Assembly: GCA_945863885.1 (NCBI GenBank)
Contig: CAMAZY010000014.1
Span: 500 to 64,499 of the forward strand
Length of the DNA: 64,000 nt
From: an uncultured Clostridia bacterium
Lineage (GTDB): Bacteria > Bacillota > Clostridia > Oscillospirales > Acutalibacteraceae
Direction: 5' to 3'
Shown here: positions 8,684-62,681 of the stretch, one piece after another
Layout of the letters: each line of letters begins with the position of its first letter
How positions within the stretch are numbered: position 1 is the stretch's first letter
Made by a program: the position numbers and the translations under genes
Notes under the pieces: model-generated
Told to the model about the DNA's origin: nothing
What the model saw: the letters and a program-made list of their open reading frames with translations, nothing else
Database searches by the model: none

Positions 8684-8718
8684 ATTCAGATTTTAGATTT
8701 TAGACATCAGATATCAGA
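8684..8718 (+). repeat. Five tandem heptads NNNYAGA, located between the gdhA stop and its terminator
   Basis: attCAGA tttTAGA tttTAGA catCAGA tatCAGA with strict 7-nt periodicity. Starts 1 nt after the TAA stop. Confidence 0.8.
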
Positions 8719-8720
8719 TC

Positions 8721-8750
8721 GACCGCCGAAAGGCGGTCGGTTGTTATATT
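8721..8750 (+). terminator. gdhA terminator hairpin
   Basis: gaccgcc-gaaa-ggcggtc (GNRA-type loop), followed by ggttgttatattt. Confidence 0.65.
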
Positions 8751-36095: not shown

Positions 36096-36280
36096 ATATA
36101 TCACCTTTGATATATTTCCTCTTCATTATTCATTATAACATATCCGACTGCCTTTTGCAATAAGAAATTATCGCCGATACTTTGTTCCCTGCCGCAAAAG
36201 AATACCGCCTGCACTGTCAAAAATAACCAATCCGTTTTGCGGCAAATAATTTACCTGATGCACGAATCTAAAGCGCCGTT

Positions 36281-36371
36281 ATTCACTATTCAATATTCAT
36301 CATTCATTATTCATTACAAAAATCCGTTCTTCTTAATGAATAGTGAAGGGCGAATAATGAAGAATGAATAG
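36281..36371. repeat. Inverted pair of 5x7-nt heptad arrays forming a long imperfect hairpin
   Basis: Left arm: attcact attcaat attcatc attcatt attcatt (36281-36315). Right arm: tgaatag tgaaggg cgaataa tgaagaa tgaatag (36337-36371). About 26 of 33 positions are complementary by hand alignment. Confidence 0.75.
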
Positions 36372-36377
36372 TACAAA

Positions 36378-36414
36378 GAAAAATCCGTCCTCAAAGAGAA
36401 CGGATTTTTCTTTT
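36378..36414. terminator. Terminator downstream of the metallophosphoesterase gene
   Basis: gaaaaatccgt / acggatttttc, with T-runs on both strands. Confidence 0.7.
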
Positions 36415-36456
36415 CAGTAGTGCGACAGCCCGTTTCGCCGTATACTGCACTGCGTT

Positions 36457-48986: not shown

Positions 48987-49997
48987 TTATTCCTCCTTTG
49001 ACGGTTCGGAGTATACTTCGGTTACTTCGATTGAATCGACCATATATACGTCGCTCGGGTTAGGCAGTGCTGTGGTCGGAACATACTTTACACCGCCGGT
49101 TTTGTCCGCCGTTTCAAAAAGAGCTTTGACGGCTTCTTTTCCGACGAAAAAGCTCACGCCGACATCAACAAGGTTTGTCATGATATAGCCGTCCTCGGAG
49201 ATAGTCAGGAACAGAGAATACCGGCTTAAAAGCGGAGACGATACGCCGAATTCGAGAATGCGCTCGCCGTCTTTTGCCATATTATCCGACGTGTATTCAA
49301 GTGCTTTCGCTTTTCCGCAAGCTTCAAGCAACCGGTAAACCGTATTGGGTAGTGCCTCATTTTCATGAAGCTTGATCTGACTTGCACTGACATCAGAATT
49401 CGAACTGAGAATGATATCGCTGTCGATTTTTATGTTTTCGGAAAAGTTCAACTTGTCGGTAAAATCCTTTAGGTCAGACGGAAACCAGTCTTCCGCTTTA
49501 TAGGAATAGGTGTTGCCGTCCGTATCAAATTTCACCGCAACAAGAAAATCACTTTTGAACGTTCCGACCGTATAAACCTCACAGTCGGTTTCGTAGATTT
49601 TATCGGTGTAGCTATCGAACCCTTTGGCTTTTGCCGGACCGAGCTTCGTTCCGATTTCGGTCTTTCCGGCTTTCATGCCGGTTGAAAGATATGTCTTTCC
49701 GTTAAAGCTTAGTTCCGTGTACTTTTCGTTGCTTTCTTTTTCGTCCCACTTCTTTTCCGGACAGATTTCTGCCGCCGCTGTCTGAACAACAAGGTTCGCC
49801 TGATTTTGCGTCTGCTCGTCCTTGATTTTCGGCTTGTCAGCCTTCATAAACACAACCGCAGCCGCAACCGCCAAAACAATACAGGCGACCGATGCGACCT
49901 TCAAAAAGGTTACCCGTTTCGTCTTTTTTCCGTTCGCCGCTTCGGCGATTTTTTCGTCGGAAATTTCACCCAATGCGTCATTGAGATATTCATTCAT
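48987..49997 (-). CDS. Putative anti-sigma factor (single-pass, with an extracytoplasmic domain of about 275 aa)
   Basis: Start at ATG 49997, overlapping the sigma gene stop by 8 nt. Short cytoplasmic N-terminus, then TM helix VASVACIVLAVAAAVVF. The call rests on position and topology only. Confidence 0.6.
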   Translation of the reverse strand: MNEYLNDALGEISDEKIAEAANGKKTKRVTFLKVASVACIVLAVAAAVVFMKADKPKIKDEQTQNQANLVVQTAAAEICPEKKWDEKESNEKYTELSFNGKTYLSTGMKAGKTEIGTKLGPAKAKGFDSYTDKIYETDCEVYTVGTFKSDFLVAVKFDTDGNTYSYKAEDWFPSDLKDFTDKLNFSENIKIDSDIILSSNSDVSASQIKLHENEALPNTVYRLLEACGKAKALEYTSDNMAKDGERILEFGVSSPLLSRYSLFLTISEDGYIMTNLVDVGVSFFVGKEAVKALFETADKTGGVKYVPTTALPNPSDVYMVDSIEVTEVYSEPSKEE

Positions 49998-50544
49998 CGT
50001 ATACACCCTCCTTAACAAGATAAGCTTTCAGTTTCTGTCTCGTCCTTGAAAGCCTTTTATGTACGGTGTTTTCGCTCAGACCGAATTCTTCGGCAAGAAC
50101 TGAAGTCTCACAGCAAAACCAGTACCGCTTGACAAAAAGCCGCCGGTTTTCGCTGTCAAGCGTATCCAAAAAGCTGTCAATCAGCTTGCCGAGCCGCTTT
50201 GAATCAAGATGCCTTTGCAACTCGTCACAGCCGATCGCTTCGTCAAGCTCTTCAAGCGGAATGGTGATTCCCGTCCGTTTGCGTGCCGTTTTTTCACGCA
50301 GTCTCTTAAGCGACAGGTTTTTCGCAATCCGGCAAAGAAACGCAGAAAGTGGGTCGGGCTCTTTCGGCGGAACGCTTTTCCACAAAGCGAAATAGGTGTC
50401 GTTTTCACATTCGGCGGCGTCCTCGTCGCTGTTTACAATGTTTTTTGAAAGAGAGAAAAGCAATTTTCCGTATTTTTCTTTCGCTTCTTTCAGTCCCTGC
50501 TCATTCCGGACAAAAAGGAGAGAAATGATTTCGCTGTCCGACAT
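49990..50544 (-). CDS. ECF-type sigma-70 family RNA polymerase sigma factor
   Basis: Start at ATG 50544 after AAAGGAGG. Region 2 (DAAECENDTYFALWK) and region 4 HTH (SVLAEEFGLSENTVHKRLSRTRQKL). Confidence 0.85.
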   Translation of the reverse strand: MSDSEIISLLFVRNEQGLKEAKEKYGKLLFSLSKNIVNSDEDAAECENDTYFALWKSVPPKEPDPLSAFLCRIAKNLSLKRLREKTARKRTGITIPLEELDEAIGCDELQRHLDSKRLGKLIDSFLDTLDSENRRLFVKRYWFCCETSVLAEEFGLSENTVHKRLSRTRQKLKAYLVKEGVYDE

Positions 50545-50638
50545 AAGAAGACCTCCTTTCACTTTTTCGGGCGGGTTCGGATTATATGTGTCACCCTATA
50601 GATACCGTTTGCGTCTCGTTTCTGACACGCATAGTATG

Positions 50639-50838
50639 TAACAGATGTTGGATTTTAGATGTTAGATGTTAGAATCGGTCGCGGGTTTCCTTTGTGCCAA
50701 AGGAATAGTTCAACCCGCAGAGTCGGTTTTTTCGTGTCGGGAAGCCGGTAGATTATAAGCGGAGGGAACCTTTGCGGCTTCGGGGAAAACACTTCCGCAG
50801 GCGGCAAAAGTGCGGCTTCGCCGCACCCGGGCGCCTTA
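50639..50838 (+). repeat. Modular intergenic element, copy 1 (candidate structured RNA; strand unresolved)
   Basis: Five heptads (taaCAGA tgtTGGA tttTAGA tgtTAGA tgtTAGA), then the blocks cggtcgcg, cgcagagtcgg, ccggtagattataagcggaggga and gcggcaaaagtgcggcttcgccgcacccgggcgcctt. All are shared with 61139-61416. Confidence 0.7.
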
Positions 50839-50991
50839 CTTCCCATCGGCACCGGTTACGTTTCATTTTATCATTTTCCCCATCGGTTGTAAATCGTCTG
50901 CAATATCGGCCGACAGGCAAAAATGTACTCGGATTGTCACAAATTAACAAAAAACTTCCCTTTATTTACTTTAAGGTGTTGCTTTGGCTCA

Positions 50992-51020
50992 TTGACAGAA
51001 ATTTTGACAAAGTGTATACT
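50992..51020 (+). promoter_or_regulatory. Candidate serA promoter
   Basis: TTGACA (50992-50997), 17-nt spacer, TATACT (51015-51020). Confidence 0.55.
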
Positions 51021-51074
51021 TTATATAATGATATATTTTTCGATTTACCCAAACAAATATTTACGGAGGAAGCC

Positions 51075-52247
51075 ATGTATAACATTCTTACTCTCAATTC
51101 CATTTCACCGAAAATCAATACACAGCTTACAAACGACCGCTTCAATGTTTCTTCGAGTATCGAAGATCCCGACGCTGTCGTTGTCAGAAGCTTCAATATG
51201 CACGAAACCGAGCTTGGCGAAAACCTGAAAGCCATTGCAAGAGCGGGCGCCGGCGTCAACAATATCCCGGTTGACAAGTGCACCGAAAAGGGTATCGTTG
51301 TTTTTAATTCACCCGGAGCGAATGCAAACGCTGTTAAAGAGCTTGCGCTTTGCATGATGCTTATTTCTTCGAGAAACGTACTTGACAGCATCGACTGGAC
51401 AATGTCCTTAAAGGGCGGCGGAGACGCTGTGACAAAGACTGTCGAAAAGGGCAAGGGTGCTTTTGTCGGTCACGAACTCAAAGGAAAGACCCTCGGCGTT
51501 ATCGGACTTGGCGCAATCGGCTCTCTTGTTGCGCAGACGGGCGTTGATCTCGGCATGAAAGTCATCGGCTGTGACCCGCACCTTACGATTAACGCCGCTT
51601 TGAAGCTTTCGAACGCCATCAAGGTCGTCACCGACGAGGACGTACTTATCAAAAATTCCGACATCATCTCTGTTCATGTTCCGCTTTGCGACGAGACGAG
51701 ATATAAATATAACGACGCTTTCATCTCAAAGTGCCGCAACGGCGTGATTCTTTTGAATATGTCAAGAGCGGAAATCGCCGACCCCGACGCCATCAAGAGA
51801 GGCATCGCCGACGGAAAGATTGCCAAATACGTCTGCGACTTCCCGACCGACAACCTGATCGGTGAAAAGGATGTTATCCTGACGCCGCACTTAGCCTCCG
51901 GCACCTACGAAGCCGAGGACAACTGTGCGCTTATGGCGGCGGAAGAACTCAAGAACTATCTGCTTTACGGCAACATCAAAAATTCCGTTAACTTCCCCGA
52001 GTGCTCGCTCGGTTATCTTGAAAGCAAAACAAGACTTTGCATTTTCCACGAAAACAAGCCGACGCTGATTCAGCAGATTACTCATCTCGTTTCCTCAACC
52101 GGTGCCAATATCGACAACATGATAAGCAAGGCAAGAGGCACCAAGGCATATACAATGCTTGACGTCGGAGCCGAAGTCAGTTCCGACACAAAAAAGAGCA
52201 TTGAAAAAATCGACGGTGTTGTCAGGGTTATCAGTATTGAAAAGTAA
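51075..52247 (+). CDS. serA: D-3-phosphoglycerate dehydrogenase with a C-terminal ACT domain
   Basis: Start at ATG 51075, 5 nt after GGAGGAAG. The track 5' extension runs through the promoter and the repeat. GLGAIGSLVA NAD fold and HLASGT. Confidence 0.85.
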   Translation: MYNILTLNSISPKINTQLTNDRFNVSSSIEDPDAVVVRSFNMHETELGENLKAIARAGAGVNNIPVDKCTEKGIVVFNSPGANANAVKELALCMMLISSRNVLDSIDWTMSLKGGGDAVTKTVEKGKGAFVGHELKGKTLGVIGLGAIGSLVAQTGVDLGMKVIGCDPHLTINAALKLSNAIKVVTDEDVLIKNSDIISVHVPLCDETRYKYNDAFISKCRNGVILLNMSRAEIADPDAIKRGIADGKIAKYVCDFPTDNLIGEKDVILTPHLASGTYEAEDNCALMAAEELKNYLLYGNIKNSVNFPECSLGYLESKTRLCIFHENKPTLIQQITHLVSSTGANIDNMISKARGTKAYTMLDVGAEVSSDTKKSIEKIDGVVRVISIEK

Positions 52248-54409: not shown

Positions 54410-54835
54410 TATGATTACCTCCCTGAGCTTTCGGAAAACACAAAACCGAAGCCCGTTTATATTTTGACAAACGGTAAATCCGCCTGCTTTTTTTCAGTCA
54501 CTTATAGATACGCTTCGTAAACTAACGGTAACTTGTATCATTTTACCATAATATCAACAAAAAATCAAACTGATTTATCACTAATTTTGTGCATTGTTTT
54601 TTGTTCATGCTGTACAGTTCAGACGGTTAAAACAGAAAACCTGTAACCTCAACTATTATCTTTTATCTGTTATCTATTCATTAAGCTGTCTTCCGGCTCG
54701 GGCAGTCAAGTGAAAGAATAGTTCAAACCACCTCGACCGGTGGCATCGAACTACGATCCCGGGATCTCCGTTTCAACACAACAAAATCACAGCCCGGAAA
54801 ATTTCTTCCGAGCTGTATGCTGTTCGATATTTGTT

Positions 54836-57589: not shown

Positions 57590-60457
57590 TTACTGCACCT
57601 CCTCGTTTGACTGTGTGTTGTCGTCTGTTTGCGGGATGTTCTGCGGTCTGAAGTTCTCGCCGGCTGTGGCTGACTGCGGAGAGAACATACGTCCTTCGCT
57701 CAAAGCAGATACGCCATCCGTTCCTTGTCCTGCCGCCTGCTGCGCTTTCAGCTTTTCCTGTTCTTCAAGATAACGTCTTCGGATTTCAAGCCTGTACTGT
57801 TCTATTTCGGCTTCGTGCTTTTTCTTCAGCTTCTGTTGCCGTCTTTCTTCAAGACGGTCAAAAATGACCTCTCTTTTGATGATGCAGACGACTGCCGCCG
57901 CTAAAAGCAAAACAACCAGAATGCCGAAAATCACCTTGCCGACCGCACTCTTTTTCGATTCGACATAAATGATAGTCGGGGTATAATCTTCGTTTCCGAC
58001 GGTGTTGGAAACCGCTCTGTCACGGAAGAACAGTTTGTAAAGCCATTCGATGGTTTCGTCTACTGTCATTTTTTCCATTTCGGAGCCGATGTTCGACGAA
58101 TAGGTTTCAAACATATTGTTGCCGCCGCCTTCGGACGAATTGCCCGCCATCATGCCGGTCAGAAAATCGGCATTTTCCGGATCTTTCATTCCGGTTACAA
58201 AATAGCGAAGCAGTGTCACCATGACTGCCGGCTGGTCAGCTTTTACATAATAAGCGTCTACCGGATTTCCCTGATAGGTCCGCTTGCTTGCAATTGTTTC
58301 AAGCTGACCTAAGGGGCCGAGTTTTTTCAGATCCGGTGCCGGAAGCTTCATGCTGTCTTTCATCATGTCGGGAATCATCGAGGAAACTTCGGAAAGAATA
58401 TCAAGATTCTGAAGCTTATCAAGTCCGAGCTGATCGGTGCTGACAGAAAGCTTGTTTAAAAGATCCGTTACGGGAACAAGAAGATTATTGATACACTGCG
58501 TCAAAGAGCCGTCGGACAGAAAACAGATCATATTCGGCAAAATCTCAGTCAGTGTATAAATCGGCTTTTCGGCGATTTTATTCATCAGAGCCACAATCGG
58601 AGCGACAATGTTTTTGACGCAGGCGTTTTCGCTTTCGTCCGCTTTGAATTCGGCGTAGGTTTTGATGGATTCCGACGGACAGCCGAACGCTTCAAGCATC
58701 GGAATCACGGCGGTGTTGTAGCCGCTCGTTCCGCAAAAGCTGATAGCGCCGAGCAGTTCGATTTTTCCGCCCCGTAAAAGCATATTGAGCATCGGCTCAA
58801 GCGGACTTAACGCCGCTGTCAGCGCCTTTTCAAAGCCTTTGCTGTCGCCGGCGGCAAAGCCCCAGTTGATTTCGGCTTTCCCTGCCTTTTCCCATGAACT
58901 GTATTGAGAAAGAACGGCTTTCGCCCGATAATATTCCGAGCCGAGCGAAGAAGCAAAGGCTGCGGGGGACGAGGGAAGCGAAAGAAGCTTTGCGGCGTCT
59001 TTCATTTCGTCCGAAGAAAGCTGACCGTAAAGCATACTGACAAGTGCCGTAACGGTGCCTGACGAGAAAAGAGACACTTTTACCGCCTGAGAAATGCTTT
59101 TATATTCTCCGCTTTCAGCGATGAATTCGCTCATGGTTTTGTCGATTCCGTCGACGACCTTCTGAAAGTTATCTTTGGTAAGATTCGGCGTATAGGTGAC
59201 GCTTCCGGGTGTAAATGCGGGCGCCGCCCACTGATATTCCGTGTCGGTGCCCTCCTGTTTCGTCAGAAGCTCAACCAAAAGGGCCAAAATCTCGTCTGTA
59301 TTTTTATTGAAAAGAGAGTCGATAACCGGCTTCATCTGCTCGGCTTCTTCACCGCCGAACTCAGACAGGAGACTGTCCTTATTCATTTTTGCCGTTTCCA
59401 AAAGCCACGAGAAAAGAACGACATACGCTTCCCCTTTGTTGGCGACGACCTTGCCGTTTTGTACTGTTCCGCATGAGGCTAACAGCTCGGTGTCCAGCTC
59501 GGCAAGCTTCATATCCCCAGAGGAGGTGAAGGACGAAAGCAAAGAAGAAAAGCCGCTTTCTCCGTCCGCTGTGCCTTCGCCGCTTCCGCCCATAAGAGAA
59601 GAAAGGGAAGATCCGGAAAACAGGGTGATGTAGCCGCCGATTCCGACTTTAAGCGGATTGATGAGTGCGTTCATACAGTCGTCCATTCCGCCGTTGTTCA
59701 TAAAGTAAGCGATGTTCGGTCCGATTTCACAAAGTGTTTTTGCCGGCGCGTCAAGCACTCTGTCGAGAAGGGAAAAGACCGAATCGACGATGTTTTTTAT
59801 CATTGTACTCCGGTCGGCATCGGCATCGGCTTTGAACTGGCTGTTCGATGTTATTTCGGTACAGCCGAGTGCGTCAAGCATGGGCACGATCCCGTTCTGA
59901 TAACCGTCATCGCCTTTGACGGTTATAAAGCCGCGTCGATAAGTGCCTGAGCACATGATGACGTAAATCAGCTCATCAAGCGGTGTAAACATGGAGGCAA
60001 GGGCATTTTTGAAGCCCGTTTTATCGCTGACGTTCCATGCCGCACCGTCAAGATTGACACTGTTCCAATCGCTTGCCGAGGAAAGAGCCTGCGATACCGA
60101 CGGATAGGCCGTAAGAGCGGACGCAACATTTTTTGTTGAAACGTCGACACCGAGAACCGAAAGTGCATTTTCCTGCTCCCCGAAAGAGGAGTAAATACCG
60201 ACAAGAATCGACGAAAGCGTTTCGTCCGAATACAGCATCGGCATGACGAGTTTATCCAGTGTGGTGTTTTGGAATTGCTTGAGCACATTTTTGATAAGAA
60301 TATCGGTCTTGTCAATGCTTTGCTCTGCTGTCTGTTCGGTCACGCCCTGTGGGTATGTGACGCCGGCCGCAAGCGACGGTAAGGCGGCTAACCAGATAAT
60401 ACTCAGACAAAGCAGAAAACTGACCGCTTTTTTAAATACCGTTTTCAGAATGATCAC
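57590..60457 (-). CDS. 955-aa surface protein: signal peptide, internally duplicated ectodomain, C-terminal TM anchor and a charged cytoplasmic tail
   Basis: Signal peptide ...WLAALPSLAAG. Repeats at about residues 70-270 and 460-665. TM helix VIFGILVVLLLAAAVVCII (residues 842-860). Tail EERRQQKLKKKHEAEIEQYRLEIRRRYLEEQEKLKAQQ. The TAA stop abuts the ABC gene ATG. Confidence 0.7.
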   Translation of the reverse strand: MIILKTVFKKAVSFLLCLSIIWLAALPSLAAGVTYPQGVTEQTAEQSIDKTDILIKNVLKQFQNTTLDKLVMPMLYSDETLSSILVGIYSSFGEQENALSVLGVDVSTKNVASALTAYPSVSQALSSASDWNSVNLDGAAWNVSDKTGFKNALASMFTPLDELIYVIMCSGTYRRGFITVKGDDGYQNGIVPMLDALGCTEITSNSQFKADADADRSTMIKNIVDSVFSLLDRVLDAPAKTLCEIGPNIAYFMNNGGMDDCMNALINPLKVGIGGYITLFSGSSLSSLMGGSGEGTADGESGFSSLLSSFTSSGDMKLAELDTELLASCGTVQNGKVVANKGEAYVVLFSWLLETAKMNKDSLLSEFGGEEAEQMKPVIDSLFNKNTDEILALLVELLTKQEGTDTEYQWAAPAFTPGSVTYTPNLTKDNFQKVVDGIDKTMSEFIAESGEYKSISQAVKVSLFSSGTVTALVSMLYGQLSSDEMKDAAKLLSLPSSPAAFASSLGSEYYRAKAVLSQYSSWEKAGKAEINWGFAAGDSKGFEKALTAALSPLEPMLNMLLRGGKIELLGAISFCGTSGYNTAVIPMLEAFGCPSESIKTYAEFKADESENACVKNIVAPIVALMNKIAEKPIYTLTEILPNMICFLSDGSLTQCINNLLVPVTDLLNKLSVSTDQLGLDKLQNLDILSEVSSMIPDMMKDSMKLPAPDLKKLGPLGQLETIASKRTYQGNPVDAYYVKADQPAVMVTLLRYFVTGMKDPENADFLTGMMAGNSSEGGGNNMFETYSSNIGSEMEKMTVDETIEWLYKLFFRDRAVSNTVGNEDYTPTIIYVESKKSAVGKVIFGILVVLLLAAAVVCIIKREVIFDRLEERRQQKLKKKHEAEIEQYRLEIRRRYLEEQEKLKAQQAAGQGTDGVSALSEGRMFSPQSATAGENFRPQNIPQTDDNTQSNEEVQ

Positions 60458-60980
60458 CCCTTATTGGTTCGTCTGTGTCAGCCGGGTTTTCCGGCTTGGT
60501 CTCATTGTTTGTGTCCGGCTTCTCGGATTGATTATCGGCATCGTTCTCTTGCGTTTCGGAAAGTTTTTCATCGAAGCCGGTACACTTTTTTAAGATACGC
60601 AAAAACTCTCTTGCATCGTCTTCTCCTAATTTTTCAAGCAGTGCCTGTGCTCGTTTGCTCACGGCTTCGCTTATGGACTCAACAAACTGTTTTCCCGCTG
60701 CTGTGATCGTTACCGTGACCCGCCGCTTATCTTTTTCGTCGCAAACCCTTTCAACAAGCTTCTTGATTTCCAAAGAGCGGAGCATGGCGGCAATTCTTGC
60801 CGCGGAAACGCCCAAGTCTTCGGCGAGGGCACCGGGCGTGCTTTTTCCGCCTGACGCAATCAACTGAAGCAACAGCGCATTTTCACCCTTGAGGTTGATT
60901 TGCAGGAAATTCAGTGCGTTTTCTCTTGCTGCAAACGCAATTGTTTTCAGGGTTTCCTCAAGGATTTCCTCTTTCATCAT
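60432..60980 (-). CDS. MarR-family transcriptional regulator with an acidic C-terminal tail
   Basis: Start at ATG 60980, 8 nt after GGAGG. Winged helix PGALAEDLGVSAARIAAMLRSLEIKKLVERVCDEKDKRRV. The last approx. 45 aa are Asp/Glu/Asn-rich and overlap the next gene by 26 nt. Confidence 0.82.
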   Translation of the reverse strand: MMKEEILEETLKTIAFAARENALNFLQINLKGENALLLQLIASGGKSTPGALAEDLGVSAARIAAMLRSLEIKKLVERVCDEKDKRRVTVTITAAGKQFVESISEAVSKRAQALLEKLGEDDAREFLRILKKCTGFDEKLSETQENDADNQSEKPDTNNETKPENPADTDEPIRGDHSENGI

Positions 60981-61080
60981 TATTGCCGCCTCCTTTAAAA
61001 AATATTTAACGGTGTTAAACAAGTCGTTAACATTGTTAAGTACTATAGCACACACCCTATTAAAAATCAATAAAATAAAA

Positions 61081-61129
61081 ATTAAAAATAATAAAACTGC
61101 ACAAATTCTCGGCTTGGTATTTGTGCAGT
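61081..61129 (-). terminator. Terminator or attenuator hairpin between repeat copy 2 and marR
   Basis: actgcacaaat (61096-61106) / atttgtgcagt (61119-61129), followed on the - strand by ttttattattttt. Confidence 0.55.
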
Positions 61130-61138
61130 TTAATGAAA

Positions 61139-61416
61139 CAACAGATGTTGAATTGAAGATATTAGATTTTAGATGTTAGATATTAGAAGCGGTCGCGTTG
61201 GTACACGGTACTAAAGAAAACCCTCTGCCCGCAGAATCGGCTTTTGCGTGACGGAAAATCCGTAGATTATAAGCGGAGGGAAGCCGGGCGATCTTGGGCG
61301 AGTCGCAGCCACAGGCGGGACGGCGGCCGACAAAACCCTTTTTTGGGGTTTTGTTTTTGCCGCTGCCTGCGGCAGCGGCAAACGTGCGGCTTCGCCGCAC
61401 CCGGCCGCCTTGCCGG
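61139..61416 (+). repeat. Modular intergenic element, copy 2 (longer variant)
   Basis: Seven heptads (CAGA...TGAA, AAGA, then TAGA x4), then the same conserved blocks as copy 1. Carries an extra segment of about 80 nt with two hairpins (61331-61358 and 61359-61379). Confidence 0.7.
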
Positions 61417-61507
61417 AAATCCGCCTCTTCACACAATACCAAAAAAGGCAGATGACAGCTTCACGCTAATCATTATATTATATATATGCACGACCCGTGC
61501 CGGATTT

Positions 61508-62359
61508 TCAAAGCTCCCGCTTGAAGGCAAGACCGATGAAACCATCTGAACAGTATGTCGCCATACAACAGCCGGCTTCGGTCACCGTCACATCTTTTGC
61601 GCAGGAGACCTCTTTCACATAAGCGCAAAGCTCGTCGGCTTGCTTTTGCCTAAACCCGCAGACCGATAAAATCACACATTCGCTTCCGCCGTTTCCGATA
61701 TTTTCAAGCTTCCGGCCGAGAAATTTTTTCCGGGCACTGTCCGGGGTTCCCTTGTGCTTTTCCCCGACCGCCAAGGCACCGTCCGTAATATCGACGGACG
61801 GATAAAAGCCGAAAAGGTCTGAACCGGTTTTTTCGAGCGCCGTGCAGATTCCGCTTTTGTAAAGAAGCCGGGCGTCGCCGGCGAGGAAGCTTGTTTCGAT
61901 CTGTGCCTTGAGCGCCTCAACACCCGAAACGATTTCATCGGCGCTTTTTTCCTCGAGCCGCATTCTCGACGCTTCGAGGCATAAGAGCATAAGACCCGCC
62001 GAAACGGTCTGAGAGTCGACAACATGAACCGTTTCAAAAGCGTTTGCGGCGAAACAGGCGTTTTCGTAACACGGAAAAAGCTTTCCGGACGGGCATAGGT
62101 GAATCACGTCGTAGCCCTTTTCGACAAGAGAAGAGAAAACAAGCTTGTATTCCTGTGCGGATACCGCTGTGGCTTTCGGTATGCTTTTTGTCTCTTCGTA
62201 TTTTTCAAGCATCCGGCCCGGTGTGACGTCGATCCTGTCCTTGAACTGACTTTCCGCAATAAGAATATTCATCGGAATGACGTGAAGGTCATATTCTTTG
62301 GCAAGCGGTTTGCTGATGTCGGCGGCGCTGTCGGTGGTAATGGCAATTTTTCTTTTCAT
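61508..62359 (-). CDS. DegV-family fatty-acid-binding protein
   Basis: Start at ATG 62359 (MKRKIAITTDSAADI, the typical DegV N-terminus). Confidence 0.85.
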   Translation of the reverse strand: MKRKIAITTDSAADISKPLAKEYDLHVIPMNILIAESQFKDRIDVTPGRMLEKYEETKSIPKATAVSAQEYKLVFSSLVEKGYDVIHLCPSGKLFPCYENACFAANAFETVHVVDSQTVSAGLMLLCLEASRMRLEEKSADEIVSGVEALKAQIETSFLAGDARLLYKSGICTALEKTGSDLFGFYPSVDITDGALAVGEKHKGTPDSARKKFLGRKLENIGNGGSECVILSVCGFRQKQADELCAYVKEVSCAKDVTVTEAGCCMATYCSDGFIGLAFKREL

Positions 62360-62681
62360 AGCTGTAAGCGGCAGTCCCTGCGGCAAAGGCAACCTCTGAA
62401 AACCTCCCGGCACTCGTCACAGCACCCGACTAATACCGTCTTTGTTGTTAAAAATCCGGCATCATTTGTGCACTGTGCCGGGTACCGTCAGGCTTTCAGA
62501 GATTGTCAAAAATCGGACTGCCTTTCCTTTCTTCAAAATTAAATAGACATATCTTGTGTGATTGTTCTCTTTCATTTTATATTTTGTCCGAAAAATTGTA
62601 AAACTTTCATAAAACTATTGAAAATTCAGGAAAGAAATAGTAATATAATACTGTAATCTGATACAGAAAGGATTGATAGCA

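Follow-up and report, generated by a model that had tools for sequence, protein, structure and literature searches.

The 64,000-nucleotide stretch of uncultured Clostridia DNA analyzed here (the window) contains two intergenic copies of a repeat element, copy 1 (c1) and copy 2 (c2). Copy 1 lies between an ECF-like sigma factor gene (49990-50544, minus strand) and a divergently oriented serA-like gene (51075-52247, plus strand). Copy 2 lies between a MarR gene (60432-60980, minus strand) and the 3' end of a DegV gene (61508-62413, minus strand). By its flanking proteins, the host is a gut-metagenome Acutalibacteraceae bacterium. The element had been noticed earlier by a model that worked from the letters alone, and this sequence-only reading proposed that the two regions share ordered blocks under selection for structure.

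All of the blocks that it listed were present at the places given, as judged by reading, alignment, and blastn. They occur in identical order and orientation, starting with AACAGATGTTG at 50640 in c1 and 61140 in c2, which is followed by heptads of the YAGA type. Next come GGTCGCG (50677 and 61191), CCCGCAGA(G/A)TCGG (50714 and 61228), with small CGG-loop-CCG hairpins in both copies, and TAGATTATAAGCGGAGGGA (50749 and 61263). The last common block, GCGGCAAA(A/C)GTGCGGCTTCGCCGCACCCGG(G/C)CGCCTT, includes a 7-bp hairpin at 50810-50826 in c1 and 61384-61400 in c2. Sensitive self-blastn of the window aligned the copies over 162 nt at 72% identity (E 3e-25) and over a further 37 nt at 95% (E 2e-8). 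The 21-mers GTAGATTATAAGCGGAGGGAA and GTGCGGCTTCGCCGCACCCGG each occurred twice in the window and never in shuffled sequences. The element is therefore real, but its extent had been drawn too short, since the homologous unit reaches ~50864 in c1 and 61455 in c2. The first hairpins, described as lying at the same position with unrelated sequences, are not strictly equal in position, and their 3' halves, CAAAGGAA and TAAAGAAA, are homologous.

Each window copy turned out to be half of a larger element. Copy 1 (50640-50864, plus strand) comprises a heptad array, an arm (LM), and a truncated junction, and its right boundary was set by comparison with contig L033, which lacks the element. The array (50642-50676, plus strand) reads CAGATGT TGGATTT TAGATGT TAGATGT TAGAATC. 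The 95-nt arm (50674-50768, plus strand; nhmmer match 50676-50768, E 9e-25) carries the blocks GGTCG.G, CCC.CA.A..GG, and G.GAT.ATAAG at fixed spacing. The linker and junction that follow (50769-50864, plus strand) lack 60 nt present in copy 2, L034, and L044. Of the junction there remains hairpin C (50810-50826), with the 3' arm of hairpin B before it and the 3' half of the closing stem (50828-50835) after it; the post-junction linker is also kept.

Copy 2 (61140-61455, plus strand) is a half element with an intact junction. Its array has seven units of the TAGATNT type (61142-61189, plus strand), and its 95-nt arm (61189-61282, plus strand) was found by nhmmer with E 6e-23. The right module of 175 bp (61281-61455, plus strand) follows. 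The four-way junction (RM) at 61322-61409, to which no strand is assigned, has a closing stem (61322-61329 paired with 61402-61409) around hairpins A (61331-61353, followed by T5), B (61356-61382), and C (61384-61400). A terminal hairpin at 61421-61451 is fully paired on the minus strand (two of its pairs are G-U); AUUUCC comes next, and the hairpin looks like a terminator for degV. In contig L037, from another species, this hairpin is a perfect stem.

Orthologous loci of relatives came from contigs with the same or homologous flanking genes. A profile of the arm, run with nhmmer over 247 kb of related contigs, identified arms only at c1, c2, and four further sites, designated c3, c4A, c4B, and c6, with E values of 1e-14 to 5e-25. 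One more weak arm remnant was found upstream of the marR homologue of L039, where the orientation is opposite and the context different. The third copy, c3, was identified past an ABC-transporter gene in L037 (metagenome-assembled genome HGM12744) and has AATGAAA heptads. The orthologous spacer of the window (54410-54835, minus strand) holds a decayed c3: its upstream flank and its heptads (~54652-54683) are homologous to the intact copy, but the arm is gone, and the arm profile gave no match there. Two more copies, c4 and c6, lie in an unrelated genomic region (L046/L047), which we reached through a spurious open reading frame (ORF) overlapping c2. Of these, c4 (L046 9985-10425) is a complete foldback of ~440 bp.

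An exhaustive search with the L046 ORF (HMMER, 1.84 billion representative proteins) found only nine further clusters, formed at 50% identity, in which spurious ORFs overlap such elements; all come from metagenome assemblies. An exact 21-mer was present in only 1 of 185,579 species-representative genomes (L001). Arms thus exist at six or more loci by nhmmer, the two first noticed included, with nine ORF clusters elsewhere, and the family is a real, dispersed, low-copy one of narrow phylogenetic range, confined to a few Acutalibacteraceae. The proposed link to regulator-led operons was not supported by this comparison, as the other copies adjoin an FHA-FtsW-PBP cluster, a pair of HAD and beta-lactamase-family genes, or the 3' end of an ABC-transporter gene.

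Rfam gave no match at gathering score for the whole window and only chance-level matches at E<=10 for both copies and the full copy. The sequence-only reading had matched the element to no riboswitch or small RNA (sRNA) consensus that it considered. No tRNA or tmRNA was found. Exact scans of viral contigs with four patterns gave nothing or chance coding matches. In a BLAST search of plasmids and phages with copy 2, the sole match was 31 nt of heptads in a cyanobacterial plasmid. A metagenome scan with the 3' block of the junction was set aside as a chance coding match (...RFTSPHPAAF...), in a gene that looks like one of the Bifidobacterium miaB type; 18 of the 19 matches were near-identical copies of that one.

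The complete copy shows how the parts belong together. It runs from heptads (AATGAAT)n through GCGGTCGCGGG, a 95-nt arm, a linker, the four-way junction, and a second linker to an inverted arm, CGCGACC, and heptads (ACATCTA)n. The two inverted arms of c4 are ~60% identical to each other; each window copy has one arm. Folded as single-stranded DNA, c4 forms a foldback of -101 kcal/mol (z -6.2) in which GGTCGCG pairs with CGCGACC and both arrays remain as unpaired tails. Across the family, the element is non-coding and 225-440 bp in size.

The heptads come in distinguishable types. Ends of the TAGATGT type share one order of variant units, AGATGTT GGATTTT AGATGTT AGATGTT AGAA.., at four loci; the order seen in c1 recurs in c6, in c4B, and in the L034/L044 orthologues. 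Ends of the AATGAAT type accompany a distinguishable arm subtype (c3 and c4A). The c1 orthologue in L001/L032 has GCGTAAT/TCGTAAT units. Heptad number in c2 was equal in the window and in the eight strain contigs that span the whole array, which differ by single-nucleotide polymorphisms only, and it differs by one unit between species. Because the variant-unit order is shared at four loci and the arrays go with arm subtypes, the array is an inherited, subfamily-specific part of the element and not a product of ongoing slippage. We ruled out a phase-variable simple-sequence contingency locus, as array length did not vary among strains. A binding site for a UAG-repeat RNA-binding protein, of which HutP and TRAP are the models, was likewise ruled out, since orthologous and paralogous arrays use unrelated units such as GCGTAAT and AATGAAT.

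The junction is the part of the element for which the sequence-only reading was right about structure. It is GC-rich and ~88 nt long, with an 8-bp closing stem around hairpins A (CAAAACC..), B (TTTGCCGC..), and C, the last being GTGCGGC-NNN-GCCGCAC with invariant stems. Every junction copy has the four-way fold as its minimum free energy structure (-55 to -65 kcal/mol; z from -7 to -8), and the six copies are alike. For c2 the values are -65.2 kcal/mol on the plus strand and -63.5 kcal/mol on the minus strand, with z -7.9 on both. In the junction alignment, 96.6% of cells were paired, versus 39-49% when the partners were slid. Compensatory changes occur at three pairs, in the closing stem and hairpin B; in c6, by eye, an A-U pair of hairpin A has become G-C and hairpin B has been rebuilt. 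All junction pairs are Watson-Crick, without G-U, and almost no unpaired bases are conserved. The selection on structure claimed for the last block is supported by the common fold, its z scores, and the compensatory changes.

Short T-runs of 3-5 nt, both supplied by the base of hairpin B, follow hairpin A on the plus strand and hairpin C on the minus strand. T5 follows hairpin A in c2, L034, L037, c4, and c6. A terminator scan flagged both hairpin A (plus strand) and hairpin C (minus strand) of c6 as terminator-like. We also noted a module, TTACTCCCTCCGACGGCT.., common to L046 15179-15196, after the c6 junction, and L037 16667-16684, beyond a repeat nested in c3. Copy 1 carries a related sequence, TTACTTCCCATCGGCACCGG (50837-50856), as its post-junction linker.

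The arm behaved very differently from what had been proposed for the first part of the element. The alignment of nine arms has 95 columns and one gap, of 1 nt. The arms were 57-81% identical, and paralogues were as diverged as orthologues. The invariant blocks are GGTCG.G, CCC.CA.A..GG, CG, GG, G.GAT.ATAAG, and GG, of which G.GAT.ATAAG (TATAAT on the minus strand) is the longest. Compared with dinucleotide shuffles, the arms showed no excess of folding, with a mean z of ~-0.4 on the plus strand and ~-0.6 on the minus strand. RNAalifold gave a consensus of no more than -11 kcal/mol, in which the covariation term (+0.16) was close to zero. Small arm helices have G-U pairs on the plus strand only, and the shuffle comparison attributed the folding advantage of that strand to composition. 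Selection on structure in the first part of the element is not supported by these results; the arm is unstructured and not palindromic.

Nor does the arm look like a coding sequence. Its variability showed no codon periodicity (0.63 / 0.67 / 0.69 at the three positions), and no frame was open across all copies. A minus-strand "GFPPLIIY" frame was rejected because it has stops in c2 and L044, the frames called differ by copy, and periodicity is lacking. By eye, no ECF-type or sigma-54 motif was conserved in the arm. A fixed length, with sequence blocks that keep a fixed spacing, would be expected of a protein-bound DNA segment, which the arm may be. The arm of the window is 81% identical to that of L034, where third codon positions of flanking genes are 59-69% identical, and 69% identical to that of L044, where third positions are 68-76% identical. 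From these identities, the arm as a whole evolves near the synonymous rate, yet its blocks and length are kept.

Comparison of related loci revealed repeated loss of whole elements or modules (c1 in L033, the 60 nt of c1, the c2 module, and c3). The c1 orthologues in L034/L035 and L044 are full length, including the 60 nt that window c1 lacks. In L033, c1 is absent and 32 unrelated nt stand between the conserved flanks. At c2, the left part is present in 10 of 10 strain contigs with identical MarR, two of which end inside the element. The 175-bp module (61281-61455) is absent from eight of these contigs (L022-L026 and L028-L030) and present in the window and in L027. The indel has a flush junction, GCGGAGGG|CAGCTTCACGC, with neither duplication nor microhomology. 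Because L037, from another species, has the module with an identical right boundary, the strains without it most simply carry a deletion. Excision of the IS200/IS605 type was considered as an explanation of this indel and set aside as the less simple one, as we found no conserved target or end hairpins and the other species has the module.

Four independent metagenome contigs (L001, L027, L031, and L032) have ends that fall inside the element, as would be expected if assembly fails at repeats or at indels between strains. A different palindromic repeat of ~180 bp, CCCCTCTGTC...TCTCCCCTGAAAGGGGAGA...GACAGAGGGG, occupies the spacer past the ABC-transporter gene in L034 (3125-3255) and L037 (16450-16630). 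In L037 it is nested within c3, and it is absent from the window. The same neighborhood, between the ABC-transporter and EF-G-like genes, holds a second sigma/anti-sigma pair in relatives (L033 2366-3768 and L034 3601-4946). At this position the window has only the 426-bp spacer (54410-54835) and L037 has a GH95 gene, so that gene content changes exactly at c3.

[quoted passage not shown] On this reading the element would have spread as a foldback unit, with the arms acting as double-stranded DNA and offering a putative binding platform for a protein that copies or moves it. The junction would form in RNA transcribed from either strand, or in either strand as single-stranded DNA, presenting hairpin A and its U-run on one strand and hairpin C and its U-run on the other. 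It might thereby serve as a two-way stop or a 3'-end stabilizer at operon boundaries. After insertion, copies would be inherited vertically and eroded, often with loss of one arm or of the junction. The sequence-only reading had listed, among the outcomes that would refute it, that the element is the end of a known mobile element; a mobile-type repeat is indeed suggested, but not a known one.

Several observations weigh against this interpretation. We found no target-site duplication in the flanks of c4, c1, c2, or c6, and the 175-bp indel ends flush. No clean empty site was found, L033 having unrelated nucleotides at the c1 position. No transposase or autonomous copy was identified, and there was none in the plasmid, phage, and viral collections. 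The low copy number and the lack of near-identical paralogues give no sign of recent transposition. Orthologous arms keep their blocks without indels, and the excess of arm identity over third positions between the window and L034 suggests that some host-level constraint may act on the arms. Four of the six arms adjoin a gene's 5' end with their heptad side, a pattern that would also fit a promoter or leader. As for terminator activity, the scan did not flag the c2 junction, and L044 has no U-run after hairpin A.

Known repeat classes each match the family in part. Modular, clustered, co-transcribed repeats such as BOX, RUP, and SPRITE have been described (PMC3049150). Like them, the present family is composite, intergenic, clustered, restricted to a narrow lineage, and nested with other repeats. 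Further likenesses to the boxA-boxB(n)-boxC elements of Streptococcus pneumoniae are that terminal modules pair, the number of internal modules varies, folds are predicted for co-transcribed copies, and lone modules occur (PMC3049150). However, there is no sequence similarity to BOX, the tandem units here are 7 bp long and lie outside the arms, the center is a four-way junction, copy number seems far lower, and target-site duplications are lacking. The likeness to bacterial MITEs (Correia, MITEAba12, and BrickBuilt) lies in short, non-coding, dispersed copies with inverted arms (in the full copy) and presence/absence variation. MITEs may also carry promoter- or terminator-like signals (PMC10969869), and BrickBuilt carries an internal minisatellite (PMC4596501). 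The family is non-coding, under ~500 bp, and dispersed in multiple copies that vary in presence at c1, the c2 module, and c3, as a MITE should be, but classical MITE membership fails on the target-site duplication. In addition, its arms are long (95 bp plus the array) and only ~60% identical in the sole full copy, and no parent insertion sequence is known.

REPINs are doublets of REPs (palindromic repeats that lie outside genes) mobilized by RAYT transposases. In them, the inverted, hairpin-forming doublet is the replicative unit and singlets are decaying remnants (PMC3116915), which matches the full and half copies seen here. REPs, however, are palindromes of ~20-40 nt with hundreds of copies, and the family has neither a short palindromic unit nor a very high copy number: its arm is 95 nt, not palindromic, and low-copy. 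Heptameric repeats are over-represented in bacterial intergenic DNA and vary between relatives, with GGGAATC in Xanthomonas, GGGGAYT in Nostoc, and TAACTGA in Beggiatoaceae, Cyanobacteria, and Bacteroidetes as known examples (PMC4692102, PMC4679880). Our arrays are similar in being tandem 7-nt intergenic units, often near start codons, whose sequence and number vary between related genomes. They differ in being built into a larger element as its subfamily-specific end, in being AT-rich, and in showing no length variation among strains. Finally, the junction recalls bidirectional intrinsic terminators, with GC-rich hairpins between A- and U-runs, hairpin A serving one strand and hairpin C the other. 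Here, though, an 8-bp closing stem surrounds three hairpins in place of a single symmetric one, the U-runs have a length of just 3-5, and activity is only predicted. The repeat family is undescribed so far. None of the named analogues shares sequence with it, and in none are heptad end-arrays found together with an unstructured arm of a fixed 95 nt and a four-way junction.

The element is neither a riboswitch nor a leader specific to regulators. The arm lacks a fold and covariation, the junction folds equally well on both strands, and the neighbors and orientations are heterogeneous; for these reasons we do not regard it as a structured cis-regulatory RNA. A related idea is that the element is a promoter/leader module, with an outward promoter in the arm (TATAAT, minus strand), the rest of the arm and the heptads as the 5' untranslated region, and the junction ending the upstream operon. 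Such a module would amount to a portable boundary cassette of terminator and promoter, which is compatible with a mobile origin. The TATAAT-bearing block is the longest invariant one of the arm, and four of six arms face a start codon on the arm's minus strand, at ~95 nt (sigma), ~160 nt (marR), ~40 nt (FHA), and 22 nt (HAD), with little space for another promoter at HAD and FHA. The heptads are nearly G-free on that strand, and Correia and other MITEs do carry promoters (PMC10969869). The box itself, which the sequence-only reading had taken as -10-like, is nearly invariant but has neither a -35 partner nor an extended -10, and no sigma-70-type site was predicted in any copy. Moreover, a strong minus-strand terminator-like hairpin and the marR promoter separate the c2 arm from marR, the promoter of the sigma operon lies outside the element and is conserved also in L033, the c3 and c4A arms face gene 3' ends, and the L039 remnant is oriented oppositely. 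On balance we consider this explanation unlikely. We think it quite unlikely that the element is a plus-strand sRNA gene of ~200 nt, running through heptads, arm, and linker to hairpin A and its U-run, divergent from the regulator genes; the full foldback would then specify a convergent pair of RNAs, one with its end at hairpin A and the other at hairpin C. A conserved TTGCGT-17-TA(G/T)(T/A)AT motif (50609-50637) would place the start of such an RNA at the first base of c1, T5 follows hairpin A in the five cases given above, and the G-U pairs of the small arm helices suit the plus strand only. But no comparable promoter lies upstream of c2, c3, c4, or c6, the arm is no more structured than shuffles, its plus-strand advantage being compositional and its covariation absent, and no Rfam family matches. 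The supposed terminator is deleted in window c1, the entire 3' part is missing in most c2 strains, and the junction extends well past the supposed 3' end.

The arrangement of copies also raises the question of recombination. Inverted copies with heptads facing inward flank marR-X-ABC (c3/c2, in the window and L037) and FHA-FtsW-PBP-adh (c4A/c6, in L046). Inverted arm-plus-junction units might thus be DNA sites at cassette boundaries, the ends on which a recombinase or transposase moves or inverts operons. Besides the bracketing, the shift of gene content exactly at c3 (sigma/anti-sigma in L033/L034, GH95 in L037, and neither in the window), the invariance of hairpin C, and the purely Watson-Crick stems of the junction would agree with this. 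We nevertheless hold it to be improbable: there are only two bracketing cases, and bracketing is to be expected in any case of symmetric elements placed at operon boundaries; the neighborhood has no recombinase gene; we saw no genome that lacks a bracketed operon or has it inverted; and the L039 marR homologue has another context and a differently oriented remnant. A lambda-type att site was rejected, as the flanking copies are inverted and not direct. The promoter/leader, sRNA, and cassette-boundary explanations are in part compatible with a mobile origin. More speculative still, the arm-plus-junction units could be the ends of an undescribed operon-cassette system in which an enzyme that reads the arm and the GTGCGGC hairpin moves, inverts, or swaps operons, the units also supplying a terminator and a promoter at the new boundaries. 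The logic would be comparable to that of mobile insertion cassettes or pdif modules; we regard it as a long shot.

Very little has been described of interspersed repeats in uncultured gut Clostridia. The build of this family is unusual in its subfamily-specific heptad arrays, its arm of strictly 95 nt, and its four-way junction with the look of a two-way terminator. The family sits at operon boundaries near envelope-related operons, namely those for an ECF-type sigma factor, a MarR/ABC-FtsX transporter, an FtsW/PBP cluster, and a beta-lactamase-family gene. Should the junction insulate transcription or the arm supply promoters, the element would shape expression and rearrangement of these loci. 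It also breaks metagenome assemblies and yields spurious ORF calls, and annotation would benefit from models of the arm and junction.

The promoters of the neighboring genes could be located outside the repeat. The marR gene has its own promoter, TTGATT-17-TGnTATAGT, at 61070..61042 on the minus strand. Between this promoter and c2 is a minus-strand terminator-like hairpin (61097-61128) with a 10-bp stem, CTGCACAAAT/ATTTGTGCAG, followed on that strand by TTTTATTATTTTT, a long T-run; it is kept in L037, L038, and L039. Because of this promoter and the intervening hairpin, c2 is outside the marR leader. The gene context reported by the sequence-only reading was accurate, but its placement of both copies directly 5' of regulator operons does not apply to c2, which the hairpin and promoter part from marR. 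Next to c1, a promoter-like TTTACA-17-TGnTAAAAT at 50865-50893 (minus strand; score 10/12, with TG) reads through c1 toward the sigma gene. Its hexamers are conserved in L033, L034, and L044, hence also at a locus without the element. The plus-strand promoter-like sequence left of c1, which reads TTGCGT-17-TAGTAT in the window, is likewise kept in L033.

Upstream of the sigma gene, at 50565-50640, the pattern CCGTTTGCG(T/C)C..TTTCTGAC(A/G)CGCATA..ATG is conserved in all orthologues, whether the element is present or absent. This stretch holds a small hairpin, GCGTCTC..GACACGC, and is probably the control region of the sigma operon itself. On the other side of c1, an ORF from a TTG inside the copy (50772-52247) continues for 101 stop-free codons in frame into the serA-like gene. 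The extension looks spurious because a strong promoter, TTGACA-17-TATACT (50992-51020), and a ribosome binding site precede the ATG at 51075.

Fragments related to parts of the element occur elsewhere. A sequence resembling the 3' part of the junction, GGCTTCGCCGCACCCGACCGCCTTTGCCGG, is isolated at 22327-22365 on the plus strand (blastn E 2e-5 against copy 2). At 8686-8745, directly past the stop of a plus-strand gene, there is an array without an arm, CAGATTT TAGATTT TAGACAT CAGATAT CAGATCG (8686-8719), which continues into a GC-rich hairpin, GACCGCC-GAAA-GGCGGTC, resembling the terminator of that gene. A lone five-unit array of the TAGATGT type, again without an arm, lies between divergent DUF951 and S1-domain genes in a more distant relative (L039 2845-2882). 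At 36279-36415, two inverted TTATTCA/TGAATAA arrays (36279-36370), 20 nt apart and without an arm, could form a long hairpin and are followed by a terminator-like hairpin, AAAAATCCGTCCTC..GAGAACGGATTTTT. In their unit they agree with the arrays of the AATGAAT type in c3 and c4A.

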